DNA from: Dehalococcoidia bacterium
Lineage (GTDB): Bacteria; Chloroflexota; Dehalococcoidia; Plut-88900
NCBI GenBank assembly: GCA_965197585.1
Contig: OZ240215.1
Coordinates: 3,200,001 to 3,264,000 of the forward strand
Direction of reading: 5' to 3'
DNA length: 64,000 nt
Shown here: piece by piece, positions 52,439 through 54,784 of the stretch
Numbering within the stretch: the stretch's first letter is position 1
How the letters are laid out: the number at the start of each line of letters is the position of its first letter
Notes under the pieces: model-generated
Database searches by the model: none
What the model was told of the DNA's origin: nothing
What the model saw: the letters and a program-made list of their open reading frames with translations, nothing else
Position numbers and translations under genes: made by a program

Positions 52439-53191
52439 ATGTCACTGGAATTCCAACGTGGAGACCCCGATAATCCTGTGGGTCACGCCATCCTCTATTT
52501 CATAAGCGCCGAGGACGGCGAGTCAGTGCTTGCCACCTATCTCGTGGTGCCGCCTATCAAGATAGAGTTGGCCAAGTACATGCCTCCAATGTTCGCATCC
52601 AACGTTTCCTTTTCTGACGTGGACAGCGTGTCTGCCATTCCCTTGCCGCCAATGCCCGAGCCGGTCGGGAGCGTCCCTTACCTGGAAGCTCTGGCCGACT
52701 CCCGTGGCGATGATCTGACCTTCGGGGGTTCGGTGAACGCTTCTGATGTGGAGAGAATGCTCCACACCACCAGCGAGGCTGCCCAGGACTACCTGCGGCT
52801 CTACAACAGCCGCCCCACACTGCCCGACGCGCTGACCCAGATAGAGAGCCCTTCGGCCTCCGAGGGTTCTATGGATGACCTGTTGATCCCACTGATGTCC
52901 GACAAAGACAAGTTGGGCGAACTCTCCAAACTGACGGGCTCCATGCGCTACGCTGTGGAAGGCAATGACCAGGCCACGGCGGAAGAGTTGAGGTCTCAGA
53001 TGGAGAGCCTTGGCCGGCATCTGGGAGAGAAGTTCAGGATAGAGGATCTGATAAATGCGGCGCTCACGCCGGGATTGCTCGCGAGCAGGCTGTCGGCCCT
53101 CTACACGGAGCGGTGCTACAAGCTATGCGACGAAGACTACATGGAAGTCGCTCGCATAGAAGACGAGATCGAGAAGCTGAACCGCTCCTGA
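52439..53191 (+). CDS. Hypothetical protein with a C-terminal UVR-like coiled coil
   Basis: GGAG RBS; ends EDYMEVARIEDEIEKL. Confidence 0.8.
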   Translation: MSLEFQRGDPDNPVGHAILYFISAEDGESVLATYLVVPPIKIELAKYMPPMFASNVSFSDVDSVSAIPLPPMPEPVGSVPYLEALADSRGDDLTFGGSVNASDVERMLHTTSEAAQDYLRLYNSRPTLPDALTQIESPSASEGSMDDLLIPLMSDKDKLGELSKLTGSMRYAVEGNDQATAEELRSQMESLGRHLGEKFRIEDLINAALTPGLLASRLSALYTERCYKLCDEDYMEVARIEDEIEKLNRS

Positions 53192-53221
53192 CCCCGGCCC
53201 CAGTTCTCCCCACCTCCACCC

Positions 53222-53353
53222 CTCCCGAAGGGAGCCTGTCCGCCTTAGGCGGATCATTCCGGTCCCCGAGAGCCGGAATCCATCCCCGGAGGTGGCCAGG
53301 GCGGGGCGTCCTGTCCCCTCTCCCTCTGATGGGAGAGGGCTAGGGTGAGGGTG
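53222..53353. repeat. Cluster of REP-like palindromes
   Basis: CTCCC-GAA-GGGAG; TCCGCC-TTA-GGCGGA; ATTCCGG...CCGGAAT; CCCTCTCCC-N6-GGGAGAGGG-CTAGGGTGAGGG. Confidence 0.6.
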
Positions 53354-53384
53354 GTCCCACTTGGCCAAATGTGACACGAATCCC

Positions 53385-53414
53385 TTGACAATAATAACAC
53401 GTGTGTTCTATATT
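53385..53414 (+). promoter_or_regulatory. Sigma70-type promoter pointing into a non-coding region
   Basis: TTGACA-N18-TATATT; no credible + strand CDS downstream. Confidence 0.65.
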
Positions 53415-53600
53415 AACTTCCGGCTAGCCTGTCACACACCCAACCCCCAAAGGAGGACCCAACACCCGGGGAACACCACCGGGCCCCCGAGGACTCAACG
53501 TCTAAGCCCATCCCAAAGGGCGGCCCACGCACCGCCCCACGGCTCAAGCGAAAGCCGCCATCTCCTCTCCTAAAGCTCCCGGCTCACCTTTCCCCAACCC

Positions 53601-54078
53601 TGGCGATGGAAGACGCCTTGGATTCGTAAAACTGAAGACTCCACCACCTCTTACCAGGTGGTCGAGAGCAGGTCTTCTCTCTTGTGAGTGAGGAGGTCTG
53701 AAAAGGCCCGACGCCACTGCGCGAAGCGGGCAGGGCGCTCATTAAGCGCTCACGCGGAGGGGCCGGACCGAGCCGAGAAGTCCTCGGTGCCCCCCGTGTC
53801 TAAGTCGTTTCCGCCGTTGCTCCCGGCTCCCGGACGCTTCGGCAATGTTTAAATTACTACTCCTGTGGGGTCTACAGCTGGACCCGGCCCCCTAAGGCTG
53901 CTTTAACGCAGTACAGCCAACCCACGTGTAGGAGCCGTGCCGGACCGCTCGCCCCGGTCGAGTCCGTGCAGCAGTCGAACATATGGGATAGCGGGCCTGT
54001 AGCGTCCCCGCCCCGGGACGCCCGAACCCCCGCTGGATCGCAACAGGGGCATCGTCCAAAGAGCGTATTCCATCGCCA
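53601..54078 (+). ncRNA. Candidate 478-nt structured ncRNA (alternative: MITE)
   Basis: Terminal stem TGGCGATGGAA-G-ACGC / GCGT-A-TTCCATCGCCA; at least 8 internal hairpins including GAAA and UUCG loops. Confidence 0.55.
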
Positions 54079-54131
54079 CCCCACCAACCAAAACCGAAAC
54101 CCCCGACCGACAACTGAATAACCAGAATCTC

Positions 54132-54152
54132 GTAGGGGCGACCGGCTGGTCG
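54132..54152. repeat. GTAG-type REP-like element (partial)
   Basis: GTAGGGG-CGACC-GGCT-GGTCG. Confidence 0.45.
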
Positions 54153-54271
54153 GAGGCGCTCAACCCCCTTTGAAACACACTCCTCATCCGTTGCCTTGAC
54201 CGGCACCGACCCGCGTTTAATCTACGGTAGGGATGACGTGTCTGCGCGGCGAGTGAGGCAGTGAAACCCGT

Positions 54272-54784
54272 CTACTGGGTCATCAGGAAGGCGACAACGG
54301 CGTCGAGTTCTTCTGCGCTTAGGGTTTCGCTGAAGGTCACCGGCATCAGGCTCTCCGGGAACCCCTCAACGATATACGCATTGGTCTCGAGTATCGACTG
54401 CCGTATGTACTCCTCTGCGCTGAGGCCCGCTATTCGGGTCCCGGCTCTTTCGGAGATGCCTTGTAGGCTCGGCCCCAGCCCGACGGTCCCGTCGAGCGAG
54501 TGGCAGGTCGTGCAGGTGATGGGTGATGCGGAGTTGAAGACCCGTTCGCCGTCGCTCCCACCCGTGTCTCCTTCCGAACTGTCGTCCGGAGGTGTGGTGG
54601 GGGGAGCCTCAGCGTCCACGTTCCCTTTCTGCACTGCTGAAAGCACAGGGGTTGCGGTGGGAAACACTGCGGGGTCTCCGGCGCCCCGGTCCCGAGTCGC
54701 TAGTACTGACATCGGCACCGCAACCGCCACTATGACGGCAATTACGCCACCTGCTAACAGTGCTTTCAGCGTTAGGTTAAACAA
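54272..54784 (-). CDS. Membrane-anchored monoheme cytochrome c
   Basis: N-terminal TM helix, P/T linker, CTTCH, GPSL.G, distal Met in LMP. Confidence 0.9.
   Translation of the reverse strand: MFNLTLKALLAGGVIAVIVAVAVPMSVLATRDRGAGDPAVFPTATPVLSAVQKGNVDAEAPPTTPPDDSSEGDTGGSDGERVFNSASPITCTTCHSLDGTVGLGPSLQGISERAGTRIAGLSAEEYIRQSILETNAYIVEGFPESLMPVTFSETLSAEELDAVVAFLMTQ

Follow-up and report, generated by a model that had tools for sequence, protein, structure and literature searches.

Discussions of bacterial MITEs, which are usually short, center on DNA-level effects, as promoters, terminators, or protein-binding sites; the Correia elements, for example, span ~100-300 bp. Among insertion sequences (IS), TG...CA ends are typical of the IS481 and IS3 families, which also have short target duplications. 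Other mobile elements encode structured non-coding RNAs that combine a scaffold with a variable part, namely the omega RNAs of TnpB and IscB and the bridge RNAs of IS110. OLE, GOLLD, ROOL, and raiA are multi-branched, covarying RNAs of several hundred nucleotides with a function that is not known.

MITEs can carry sigma-70-like promoters, as the Correia elements of Neisseria do. Correia-type MITEs are described as non-autonomous elements that lie between genes in many copies, have terminal inverted repeats, target duplications, and sigma-70-like promoters, often stand just 5' of genes, and are transcribed (PMC10969869). At the RNA level, STAB-SD, the 5' mRNA stabilizer of Bacillus thuringiensis cry3A, is described as a strong Shine-Dalgarno-like box that lies close to the 5' end and does not start translation (PMC4113751).

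Here, we analyze a window of 64,000 nucleotides from the genome of a Dehalococcoidia bacterium (GCA_965197585.1, contig OZ240215.1, positions 3,200,001 to 3,264,000), in which the initial annotation had proposed an undescribed large RNA at 53601-54078 or, alternatively, a MITE. The 478-nt region forms the core domain within a single copy of a repeat that occurs ~57 times. The element resembles Correia-type MITEs in the traits listed above, with terminal inverted repeats that are imperfect and seen in one subfamily and with transcription that is suggested only, but it is longer (about 700-870 bp across the family), its promoter reads inward through a leader, a stem-closed core, and a tail, its best-kept parts are RNA features rather than termini, and its cores are of at least eight exchangeable types. 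It resembles IS481/IS3-type insertion sequences in its 5'-TG...CA-3' termini and short target duplications, but lacks a transposase gene, and its termini match only moderately. Unlike omega and bridge RNAs, it has no adjacent effector gene, no complementarity to its flanks was found, and its RNA would be several times longer. The likeness to OLE, GOLLD, ROOL, and raiA stops at ~57 copies per genome, restriction to one genus, and mobile-element hallmarks.

Results

A non-coding, highly pairable region with a promoter

The local features noted in the initial annotation were reproduced. The reverse complement of TGGCGATGGAA (53601-53611) recurs exactly as TTCCATCGCCA (54068-54078), and the stem extends through ACGC/GCGT (53613-16/54063-66) past a single G.A mismatch at 53612/54067, a pair that is restored by the C found at 54067 in contigs of three RNA libraries. 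The interior is indeed pairable: the 478 nt fold at -220.1 kcal/mol, compared with -186.5 +/- 6.7 for 100 shuffles (z -5.03), none of which equaled the native value. Because the minus strand folds about equally well (-225 kcal/mol, z -4.0), folding energy is uninformative on strand. The proposed TTGACA-N18-TATATT promoter ends 187 nt 5' of 53601 and is the sole promoter match in 53150-54320, where shuffled sequences give a mean of 0.1; no intrinsic terminator, nor any other terminator-like site, was found in the same interval. Both flanks are C/A-rich as described, with 43.9% C and 19.9% G in the leader and 39.0% C, 36.7% A, and 13.5% G in the 45-nt tail, against a genome baseline of 30.8% C and 28.4% G.

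The region is also non-coding, as had been claimed, with no open reading frame longer than 104 aa in 53192-54271. Protein coding was rejected for the family as well: a 44-copy alignment has no three-base periodicity, and indels break the frames. The ATG in the 5' arm of the closing stem opens frames that differ among copies.

The whole window gave no match in Rfam 15. Within 53150-54300, no score at E<=10 exceeded 17.4 bits, compared with a gathering score of 80, and the Rfam families RNase P, tmRNA, SRP, 6S, OLE, group II intron, ROOL, GOLLD, and HEARO all fell below the gathering threshold. At 14 loci with other copies the sole Rfam match was a tRNA, and for type C, the GGTCC type, and type D nothing relevant appeared at E<=5. 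The likeness of GATGGAAGGTCC to the P4 region of RNase P found no Rfam support, and assignment to a known RNA family was rejected.

The region is part of a repeat family confined to one genus

The idea of a large non-coding RNA thus stands insofar as the region does not code for protein, is strongly structured, and lies behind a real-looking promoter, with pairing kept by compensatory changes. It fails in treating 53601-54078 as the bounds of a single-copy gene, since the region makes up the core of a ~780-nt unit (about 53352-54130) that is itself one copy of a repeat. Sequences matching 53365-53625 and ~53990-54125 occur dozens of times in this genome (G000). An nhmmer search gave 58 matches, and 77 after iteration; 59 of these extend as far as the 5' module's end, and 57 have scores over 100 bits, so that the copy count proposed as a check comes to 57-59 full copies. 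The 3' module, a C/A-rich tail, occurs in 45 places, and 44 of the 59 5' modules pair with one into units of 650-829 nt. In other genomes the distance between the modules is 412-899 nt, save for one case of 3176 nt with an insertion. Altogether the family accounts for about 45 kb, or 1.3% of the genome.

The 57-59 copies share the promoter, a C/A-rich leader, the closing stem, and the C/A-rich tail (Table 1). The promoter pattern TTGA[CT]-N17-19-TAnnnT is intact in 57/57 full copies, and an AGGAGG box is likewise present in all 57. Across the family a GTGACAC motif, which in the window copy lies inside the left-end module, is found upstream of the -35 box. When the left flanks of 77 promoter matches were compared, GATCC(C/T)ACTTGGC(A/C) appeared in the left flank of three other copies. 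From the promoter position, transcription is predicted to start near 53421. The palindrome GGCTAGCC that follows is replaced at the same site in other subfamilies by different palindromes (GACTAGCTAGTC, GTTCGAAC, GGTCTAGACC) and may form a hairpin at the 5' end or be bound by a protein. A single contig from an RNA library connects 53353 with 54131, a weak hint given that one side is only 22 nt long and lies in repeat sequence.

Table 1. Features of the window copy and termini of the element
Feature	Position	Strand	Remarks
Left-end module TGGTCCCACTTGGCCAAATGTGACAC	53352..53377	+	Counterpart of left terminus TGATCCCGTTCACATAGAGGGGTGACAT in copies with intact ends
Sigma-70-type promoter TTGACA-N18-TATATT	53385..53414	+	11/12 consensus matches
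Short palindrome GGCTAGCC	53422..53429	+	Predicted 5' end of transcript
Shine-Dalgarno-like AAAGGAGG	53449..53456	+	No downstream start codon; nearly invariant in 67-row alignment A2
Leader domain	53468..53595	+	Closed by long-range helices (RNAalifold, model-based alignment A3)
Leader helix GGGGAA/UUUCCCC	53468-73 with 53589-95	+	
Leader helix CCGGG/CCCGG	53479-83 with 53578-82	+	
Leader helix GAGGA/UCCUC	53489-93 with 53563-67	+	
Closing stem, 5' arm GGCGATGGAAGACGC	53602..53616	+	15 bp
Stem-closed core, subfamily 5	53617..54062	+	Ornate interior of the initial annotation
Closing stem, 3' arm GCGTATTCCATCGCC	54063..54077	+	A at 54067 breaks one pair
C/A-rich, G-poor tail	54079..54120	+	Final part is CAACTGAATA
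Degenerate right border	54121..54130	+	No right-terminal module GTGTCACTAATCTACCGAACGAGTACA, no visible target duplication
Element termini TGATCCCGTTC.../...GAACGAGTACA			

The family is genus-specific. BLAST detected it in 8/8 genomes of the same genus and in 0/3 other genera of the same taxonomic family, and the leader model R1 matched 5/5 genomes of the genus and 0/145 other Dehalococcoidia genomes. A 25-nt leader pattern had no match in viral contigs, and the whole element had none in plasmids. Among the papers listed by title and abstract on Dehalococcoidia/Chloroflexi, sponge symbionts, or bacterial MITEs, none described such an element. In this genome 42 copies lie on the + strand and 17 on the - strand, with a switch near 2.65 Mb at the cumulative GC skew minimum. 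This may reflect a replication-linked orientation, but the skew curve is irregular, and strand counts of long open reading frames are without bias.

The element has transposon-like ends and empty sites

At the DNA level, the MITE alternative is closer to the truth than a stand-alone RNA gene, but not with the ends first proposed: the TG...CA at 53601/54078 with adjacent CCC belongs to the arms of an internal stem. The true ends, as seen in a subfamily with intact termini, are farther out, one 5' of the promoter and the other 3' of the tail. In this subfamily the termini read 5'-TG...CA-3' and form imperfect inverted repeats, and the target duplications are 5 bp long. The right-terminal module GTGTCACTAATCTACCGAACGAGTACA occurs in 25 copies, and both terminal modules occur together in only 15. 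In these 15, compared by eye, TGATCCCGTTCACATAG... agrees with the reverse complement of ...CTACCGAACGAGTACA at ~12/16 outer positions and 19/27 overall.

The target duplications expected of a MITE were present: identical 5-nt direct repeats stand beside the TG...CA ends in 8/15 two-ended copies, and a further 4/15 have repeats alike at 4/5 positions. TTG directly follows the repeat in 9/15, the usual insertion site being just upstream of a TTG(AC) -35 box. At one locus (L033) a copy in another species is matched in G000 by an empty, uninterrupted site (...GTGC TTTCG TTGACAGC...), and the filled site duplicates TTTCG. Among 20 elements from other species whose flanks could be mapped in G000, 14 sites were filled, three were empty, and three had larger gaps.

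Empty sites were also found for the window locus itself. It is filled in G005, G003, and G001 and empty in four species (G004, G006, G007, and G008), in which ~230 nt separate the flanking genes and no module of the element was found. The window copy retains a left-end-like module only; its right terminal module and target duplication are absent.

Outside the family, the termini occur nowhere else in G000 except at the groES promoter, where the left-terminal sequence stands alone together with the -35 region. Thus, the left end may be a general promoter-upstream element and not purely a transposon end. The GTGACAC-type promoter is found at groES, at phage-like capsid and terminase clusters, and in a second repeat family.

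Candidate mobilizing enzymes

The element contains no transposase gene, no longer (autonomous) version was found among 80 loci, and no cognate transposase with matching ends was identified. Because of the 5-bp duplications and TG...CA ends, a DDE enzyme is indicated. Three DDE_Tnp_1 IS types in G000 have ends unrelated to the element. An IS481-like IS of 1056 bp (L004:369-1424; 21 copies, 5-bp duplication ATTCC) has an inverted repeat alike to the right end of the element at 17/27 positions. This IS has no full copy in G004-G007, all of which carry the family, and from these comparisons it is a weak candidate for the partner.

Elements that use other enzymes were also considered. PF01797 (Y1 transposase) and PF07282 (TnpB zinc-ribbon) had no matches in G000, which is 92% complete, and neither did PF00078 (reverse transcriptase). 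With no Y1 or TnpB and with 5-bp duplications present, an IS200/IS605 derivative (PATE) or a TnpB omega RNA was rejected. A retron, a group II intron, or another retroelement RNA was rejected as well, there being no reverse transcriptase and no group II intron match in Rfam. Nine IS110-type recombinase genes are present in G000, two of them ~640 nt upstream of a copy, and these two are separate insertions of ~1160 nt. An IS110 bridge RNA was set aside because the elements stand alone and there is no excess of matches between body and flank: the longest exact match to an element's own flanks averaged 9.36 nt (n=44), against 9.1 nt for the flanks of other elements.

Covariation in the closing stem and leader

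The closing stem is 95% Watson-Crick across 98 copies, and its positions 12-14 covary (A-U 73/G-C 22, C-G 62/U-A 23, G-C 69/C-G 21). Read on the + strand it contains 34 G.U against 15 A.C, a modest bias toward that strand. In the leader, the structure was obtained from a refolded model-based alignment, the first automatic structure having 17 pairs. Across 94 distinct rows its helices are 92.2% paired, compared with 33-52% in slid controls, and contain 89 two-sided changed cells, compared with 40 in shuffles, of which 0/500 reached 89. Covarying leader pairs include AU 51/GC 31, CG 37/GC 15, and AU 45/GC 27. The structure of the window subfamily has 140 pairs that are 96.3% paired, compared with 38-45% when slid, and six pairs show two-sided changes. 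Alignment of whole elements across the family with MAFFT and RNAalifold recovered little except the closing stem, and a fold of the central module across subfamilies gave only 11 pairs.

Neither thermodynamics nor the ratio of G.U to A.C in predicted helices served to assign the strand, since the reverse complement did equally well or better. The minus strand gave the better core fold in 90/98 cases, and consensus folding of the reverse complements yielded 1078 pairs, 52 of them covarying, compared with 1015 and 55 on the + strand. We tentatively place the RNA on the + strand.

Cores are exchanged between copies

The cores fall into at least eight subfamilies of 225-559 nt. The window core belongs to subfamily 5, which has one copy in G000 and accounts for 6/98 collected elements. 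It contains the junction CCUG(Y)...(R)CAGCCAACCC...GGAGCC, which is common to two other subfamilies and present in 38/39 members of clusters 0, 3, and 5. Large deletions and hairpin insertions are tolerated in cores, and small hairpin units (TGGAACATCCGCC...) are inserted in tails, leaders, and one core.

Leaders, tails, and entire cores have been exchanged between copies, and core subfamilies have been swapped between orthologous loci: in 4/14 orthologous pairs the cores are unrelated. Nine of the ten pairs with unswapped cores have 88-99% core identity, about equal to their mostly coding flanks; the tenth, the window locus compared with G001, has 68%. Within that pair, the core segment 53706-54062 is 87% identical, whereas the two genes on either side share 64-66% of their third codon positions. 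Compared with the closest relative, the element is no better conserved than its flanks (94.5% vs 95.2%), and promoter, leader, and tail are frequently less alike than the flanks in orthologous pairs. From these comparisons, leader conservation may owe much to gene conversion. The window core has no long complementarity elsewhere in the genome (coverage 1 over 53630-53970).

Transcription

In four RNA libraries, contigs over parts of the element have a summed word depth of ~200-700, compared with 6-27 on the flanking genes; these figures are sums over paralogs and organisms, DNA may be present in RNA libraries, and the contigs are strandless. The depth is no more than suggestive of a transcribed element whose RNA is abundant. 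RNA runs cover small shares of the stretch (0.05-0.14). Run X20, which is labeled as a sponge metagenome, contributed 18 pieces, mostly 90-95% alike, from which we conclude nothing further on habitat, and in run X19 positions 53812-53982 are without contig cover, a kind of gap from which we draw no inference.

Discussion

On balance, we lean toward viewing the family as a genus-specific, non-autonomous MITE-like element that also serves as the transcription unit of a ~700-nt structured non-coding RNA, with the window copy old and fixed. The element is, or was, probably a non-autonomous transposable element, moved in trans by a DDE transposase of the IS481/IS3 kind. Transcription from near 53421 would produce a stable and abundant RNA. 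An unpaired AGGAGG near the 5' end may act as a STAB-SD-like stabilizer against RNase J, a homolog of which is encoded in the genome (565 bits); the comparison with STAB-SD is only an analogy. The G-poor, C-rich tail may load Rho, which the genome also encodes (593 bits). The leader and closing stem would be recognized by a partner, and the core would be an exchangeable, compactly folded module. A role for the RNA as a trans-acting decoy or as a scaffold for a protein is speculation.

Function may instead reside in the DNA, a reading that we consider doubtful. The element would then be a portable promoter or upstream-element cassette, or selfish DNA, with an interior accreted from the small palindromic repeats that are scattered through this genome and a transcript that is a by-product. 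Promoter-bearing MITEs are known (PMC10969869), and here the GTGACAC promoter type would also drive groES, the phage-like clusters, and the second repeat family. Copies are found immediately 5' of TTG(AC) boxes, and restriction to one genus suits a young selfish element. The inserted hairpin units, the variable core length with its large deletions and replacements, and a minus strand that folds at least equally well also fit. However, the inward-reading promoter and the AGGAGG are kept in every full copy, and the leader helices that covary pair segments ~110-130 nt apart, which is hard to obtain from local DNA palindromes. The excess of G.U over A.C in the fixed closing stem, the junction motif common to three core subfamilies, and a window copy that lacks intact ends yet has a core better preserved than third codon positions likewise argue against function at the DNA level alone.

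A bolder reading, which we regard as unlikely, is that the copies are ~60 expressed genes of a new modular class of large, trans-acting RNAs, for which the transposon-like ends are merely the vehicle of spread. In such a class the leader and closing stem would present an exchangeable core of at least eight types, for instance as specificity modules or decoys, and candidate targets would be RNA-binding, defense, or transposition machinery.

We find it distinctly improbable that the family has been domesticated as trans-acting structured RNA genes, such that its spread is history and the copies now serve the cell, for example with cores as specificity modules. This would agree with 14/20 testable copies standing at orthologous positions in another species, with the uniformly intact promoter, with the flank-like identity of 9/10 unswapped orthologous cores, with the window core and G001 being more alike than third codon positions, and with the high RNA-library contig depth. 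However, the family is limited to one genus, no partner protein or target is known, and the window core is without long complementarity elsewhere in the genome. Cores have been lost, swapped, and interrupted, and presence or absence varies among species, so single copies are dispensable. Finally, it is very improbable that an RNA-directed transposase or recombinase uses the RNA as a guide or bridge, with the variable core setting target specificity: a conserved scaffold with a variable interior inside a mobile element and two of nine IS110-type genes ~640 nt upstream of an element would fit, but TnpB, Y1, and reverse transcriptase have no matches in the 92% complete genome, body-flank matches equal those with other elements' flanks, the elements are not adjacent to a recombinase gene, and the 5-bp duplications with TG...CA ends point to a DDE enzyme.

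What does a MITE-like transcription unit mean for these bacteria? The best-kept parts of this mobile repeat are RNA parts, namely the promoter, an untranslated Shine-Dalgarno box, the fold of the leader, and the stem that closes the core. Should the RNA have no function, the family is a warning that a repeat family can supply an intricate fold, a promoter, and covariation alike, and a copy-number check is advisable before a new RNA gene is claimed. For annotation, the family places promoter-like modules beside host genes. Relatives of these bacteria appear in metatranscriptomes, one of them labeled as a sponge metagenome. If the RNA is functional, it would be a new large bacterial RNA family with dozens of paralogs per genome, and the swapping of its cassettes in uncultured Dehalococcoidia could be studied as a natural experiment.

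A large family of promoter-carrying repeats

The 478-nt stem-closed region at 53601-54078 was initially read as a candidate new large ncRNA. The observation itself was confirmed, in that the region is structured, non-coding, and without an Rfam match, but we found that it belongs to one copy of a large family, and its reading as a unique ncRNA has only partial support. Its 11-nt ends, TGGCGATGGAA (53601-53611) and TTCCATCGCCA (54068-54078), are exact reverse complements, and the stem continues through the proposed ACGC/GCGT extension with one G.A mismatch (53612/54067). The strong pairing noticed by eye is also evident in the folding energy (-220.1 kcal/mol versus -186.5 +/- 6.7 for 100 dinucleotide shuffles, z -5.03); folding of the minus strand is just as favorable (-225 kcal/mol, z -4.0). 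A TTGACA-N18-TATATT promoter occupies 53385-53414, matches 11 of 12 consensus positions, and is the only site of its type in 53150-54320 (0.1 in shuffles). The same interval yielded no intrinsic-terminator-like site. Between the flanking genes, no ORF exceeds 104 aa. Searching the whole window with Rfam 15 at gathering thresholds returned 0 matches, and a search at E<=10 in 53150-54300 returned nothing meaningful.

The single-copy reading did not survive a search of the organism's own genome (G000; 3.43 Mb, one contig, 92% complete), in which the query 53350-54250 gave 44 matches. Coverage along the query was 57-58 over 53450-53550, 1 over 53630-53970, and 5-12 over 53990-54130. Profile searches with the 5' module (53365-53625) gave 58 and then 77 matches, of which 59 run to the module end and 57 score >100 bits. 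The 3' module (about 53990-54125) gave 45 matches, and 44 of the 59 5' modules pair with one to form units of 650-829 nt. The other 18 5'-module matches are the promoter part alone, preceding other sequences that include the type D family (~12 copies), two phage-like gene clusters, and a capsid-like cluster; a separate search added a match in front of groES. In an alignment of the 44 copies, the leader is very conserved (column entropy 0.2-0.5 bits), the 3' arm and tail are conserved, the interior is variable (1.0-1.3 bits), and three-base periodicity is found nowhere. The promoter pattern TTGA[CT]-N17-19-TAnnnT and the AGGAGG box are each intact in 57 of 57 full copies. Family members lie on the plus strand in 42 cases and on the minus strand in 17, with seven consecutive minus copies at 2.68-2.98 Mb, just beyond the cumulative GC skew minimum (2.65 Mb) of an irregular skew curve.

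By BLAST, the family is present in all eight other same-genus genomes and in none of three further genera of its taxonomic family; in 29 genomes from outside that taxonomic family, the sole match was of 22 nt, at chance level, and to flank sequence. R1, a covariance model of the leader, matched in 5 of 5 sampled genus genomes and in 0 of 145 genomes from other genera of the class. A 25-nt leader pattern matched >93 stretches in a species-representative collection and, among the matches listed, 80 of 80 were titled 'MAG: Dehalococcoidia bacterium'. Viral contigs held no match to this pattern, and plasmids held none to the element. In another genome of the genus (G004; loci L017 and L026), a single copy can contain two or three tandem matches to leader parts (query 130-170), which suggests internal leader duplications in that species.

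Termini and insertion sites

Type C copies, which carry sequence of the 'GGTCTAGACC' kind after the -10 box, have sharp borders, TGATCCCGTTCACATAGAGGGGTGACAT on the left and GTGTCACTAATCTACCGAACGAGTACA on the right. The unit starts with TG and finishes with CA, and its outer parts form imperfect inverted repeats. All 25 right modules in G000 lie in family members. Identical 5-nt direct repeats stand immediately outside the ends in 8 of 15 copies with both terminal modules; in four others the repeats agree at 4 of 5 positions, and in three they do not match. TTG directly follows the right-hand repeat in 9 of the 15, often as TTGAC. At a locus filled in another species (L033) and uninterrupted in G000, ...GTGC-TTTCG-TTGACAGC... 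becomes TTTCG-[element]-TTTCG-TTGACAGC, a 5-bp duplication exactly at a -35-like box. Usable flanks were available for 52 elements of other species, and 20 of these mapped to G000; the site there is filled in 14 cases, empty in 3 (gaps of 124-142 nt), and marked by a larger gap in 3. The alternative of a MITE was closer to the truth than a unique ncRNA, but the ends proposed for it were wrong.

The window copy has a left-end-like module, lacks the right module, and shows no visible target duplication; it looks like an old, fixed family member. Its locus is filled in G005 (94.5% identical), G003 (86.5%), and G001 (76.5%). In G004, G006, G007, and G008, the flanking genes are ~230 nt apart and neither module was detected. 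One RNA-library contig joins 53353 to 54131, omitting 777 nt, and would be the empty form of the site, with one side of the joint only 22 nt long and within repeat sequence.

Features of the window copy and of associated repeats
Feature	Position	Strand	Remark
Upstream flanking gene	ends 53191	+	250-aa protein without Pfam match
Downstream flanking gene	ends 54272	-	cytochrome c
Left-end-like module	53352-53377		TGGTCCCACTTGGCCAAATGTGACAC, window copy
Leader helix GGGGAA with UUUCCCC	53468-73 with 53589-95		consensus refold
Leader helix CCGGG with CCCGG	53479-83 with 53578-82		consensus refold
Leader helix GAGGA with UCCUC	53489-93 with 53563-67		consensus refold
Type D copies	G000:C1 ~3022080, 1590855, 62856, 505614, 1445634, 1577659, 2280196, 3035257, 3062932, 3386774		others (loci L128, L129)
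~170-nt hairpin module	near G000:C1 384676, 1249388, 1397272, 1577333, 1590740, 1784870, 1870181, 1984518, 3162452, 3412406		
Phage-like gene sets	near G000:C1 2865340, 1119960, 2874409, 1869318	-, -, -, +	
Small hairpin unit, examples	G000:C1 1428823-1428900		TGGAACATCCGCCTCTGGAGGA; also rows L083, L056 of the 67-row alignment A2

Which enzyme might move the element? Reverse transcriptase, TnpB-type zinc ribbon, and Y1 transposase each gave 0 hits in G000, and its transposase domains comprise 11 DDE_Tnp_1, 9 IS110, and 29 rve hits. None of the three DDE_Tnp_1 IS types has ends related to those of the element. G000 carries 21 copies, 89-100% identical, of an IS481-like IS with a length of 1056 bp and an rve transposase of 329 aa (L004:369-1424, which is G000:C1:1007810-1008865, and 20 other places). 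It starts TGTAAGTG..., finishes ...CCACA (ends TGT...ACA), and lies inside a small palindromic repeat with a 5-bp duplication (ATTCC). Of 27 positions in its inverted repeat, 17 agree with the right end of the element. The IS481-like IS abounds in G000, G002, G003, and G008. In G004-G007, however, which do carry the family, it has no full copy; this uneven presence suggests a recent burst. We infer as the probable mover a trans-acting DDE enzyme of the IS481-like general kind. Another rve IS (438-aa frame) has inserted in two family members just ahead of the -35 box, at a distance of a few bases, at G000:C1:659305-660650 and at L011 ~2243, the G005 orthologue of the window copy. It holds the same relative position in two species and seems to target the promoter-upstream region of elements.

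Associated repeats

Type D is a second repeat family that shares the promoter of the element and has a different leader (CAGGCCCGAC...AAAGGAGTCCCATGAGTCGCAC...). Downstream of this leader lie low-complexity open frames of 250-455 codons that are probably non-coding; type D has no Rfam hit. Since type D also contains GCGATGGAAGG, it could be distantly related to the element family. The groES-groEL operon is preceded by GATCCCGTTCACATAGAGGGGTGACATCACCCCCTTG (L130:163-270; G000:C1 about 3404962-3405070), which is identical to the type C left terminus and -35 region and is followed by a -10-like TAAAAT and a CIRCE-like inverted repeat (TTAGCACTC-N9-GAGTGCTAA). Either a solo element end supplies this promoter or the element borrowed a host promoter.

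A ~170-nt upstream module, composed of a 19-bp perfect hairpin (GACATATCAGCCATGTTGC...GCAACATGGCTGATATGTC) and then AATAAAACAGGGCGGGTGGGCGG, precedes 8 family members and 2 type D copies, and two IS110-type insertions (~1160 nt) lie directly upstream of it. Phage-like gene sets share the GTGACAC-TTGAC promoter type with the repeat family; their contents, labeled by eye from translations only, are a scaffold-like, proline-rich protein with a capsid-like one, and a terminase-like frame preceded by small proteins. One to three insertions of a small hairpin unit (TGGAACATCCGCCTCTGGAGGA and variants) can stand between tail and right terminus, and the unit also occurs within some leaders, one core (L021), and type D leaders. 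It has the look of a tiny, independent repeat that is prone to insertion.

Conserved RNA-level features

Several observations suggest selection on an RNA. Across 98 distinct copies from several genomes, the closing stem has 15 pairs that are 95% Watson-Crick. Positions 12-14 switch jointly (A-U 73 / G-C 22, C-G 62 / U-A 23, G-C 69 / C-G 21), and non-canonical cells on the plus strand include 34 G.U and 15 A.C. A model-based alignment of 98 leaders (94 distinct), with the consensus refolded, yields nested long-range helices (table) that leave the AGGAGG box unpaired. In the leader, 92.2% of cells pair versus 33-52% with the partner slid. Cells altered on both sides number 89 versus 40 +/- 4 in shuffles (0 of 500 reach the observed value), a test that kinship among sequences can pass even without structure. 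Three leader pairs covary (AU 51 / GC 31, CG 37 / GC 15, AU 45 / GC 27).

For the window core type (11 sequences, five genomes), 96.3% of 140 predicted pairs are paired versus 38-45% when slid. The majority of pairs are invariant; changes on both sides occur in 6 pairs (reached in 3 of 500 shuffles) and 15 cells (0 of 500). Cores fall into clusters of 19, 19, 14, 14, 10, 6, 6, 4, 2, 2, 1, and 1 members, with lengths of 225-559 nt. Clusters 0, 3, and 5 (the window's) have in common a central signature, CAGCCnnCCC...GGAGCC (38 of 39 members; 41 of 98 overall), and a helix, CUG(Y):(R)CAG (CG 12 / UA 6). Between G000 and G001, the core at 53706-54062 is 87% identical and third codon positions of both flanking genes are 64-66% identical.

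Other evidence tempers the RNA reading. Consensus folding of reverse complements versus the plus strand gave 1078 versus 1015 pairs and 52 versus 55 covarying pairs, and 90 of 98 individual cores fold more stably as the minus strand. Because the minus strand folds as well, the fold alone cannot tell RNA from DNA palindromes. Moreover, in 14 orthologous pairs, promoter, leader, and tail are often below the 400-nt flanks in identity (in one example, leader 70%, flanks 97.9%). Cores are unrelated (36-47%) in 4 of the 14 and 68-99% identical in the other 10, nine of them at 88-99%, about flank level. The low leader and tail identity and the unrelated cores indicate that copies exchange segments, and leader uniformity may derive partly from concerted evolution. 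Cores also tolerate a substituted first domain, the absence of the final two hairpins, and insertion of a small hairpin unit.

Expression

In a search of sequencing runs, DNA runs contain the stretch and RNA libraries hold small shares of it. We compared contigs from four metatranscriptome runs with 52900-54600 and found pieces, 85-99% alike, over much of the element. Summed word depth is ~200-700 on the element (runs X18, X19, X21) and 6-27 on the flanking genes; these depths sum paralogues and organisms, come from contigs without strand or ends, and may include DNA in RNA libraries. Directly upstream of the element, the small repeat CCCCTCTCCCTCTGATGGGAGAGGGCTAGGGTGAGGGTGG (53299-53355) reaches a summed word depth of ~16,000 in two RNA libraries and is found again beside many family members, and it is therefore a repeat of very high abundance, among transcripts or community-wide.

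Discussion

The element is a transposon-like, promoter-carrying, non-coding repeat with conserved RNA-level features. The nearest known kind is the promoter-bearing MITE, such as Correia as described in PMC10969869. Unlike a Correia-type MITE, the element is several times longer and is laid out as an RNA gene. A bridge or omega RNA failed the tests as far as they were run. An IS200/IS605 derivative (no Y1 transposase), a retroelement RNA (no reverse transcriptase), and the known Rfam families also failed.

How might such an element work? We propose that a trans-acting DDE transposase inserts it just upstream of -35 boxes and that transcription would start near 53421. About 30 nt from the resulting 5' end, the AGGAGG box, unpaired in the leader fold, could act as a STAB-SD-like stabilizer. 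In the account of cry3A mRNA in PMC4113751, a 30S subunit bound to the STAB-SD blocks RNase J1; an RNase J homologue is present in this genome. Rho, also present, may load on the G-poor, C-rich tail and terminate transcription; the search of 53150-54320 detected no intrinsic terminator. The RNA may serve as a protein decoy or scaffold, a role that we suggest with low confidence. The leader and closing stem would be the recognized scaffold, and the core an exchangeable module.
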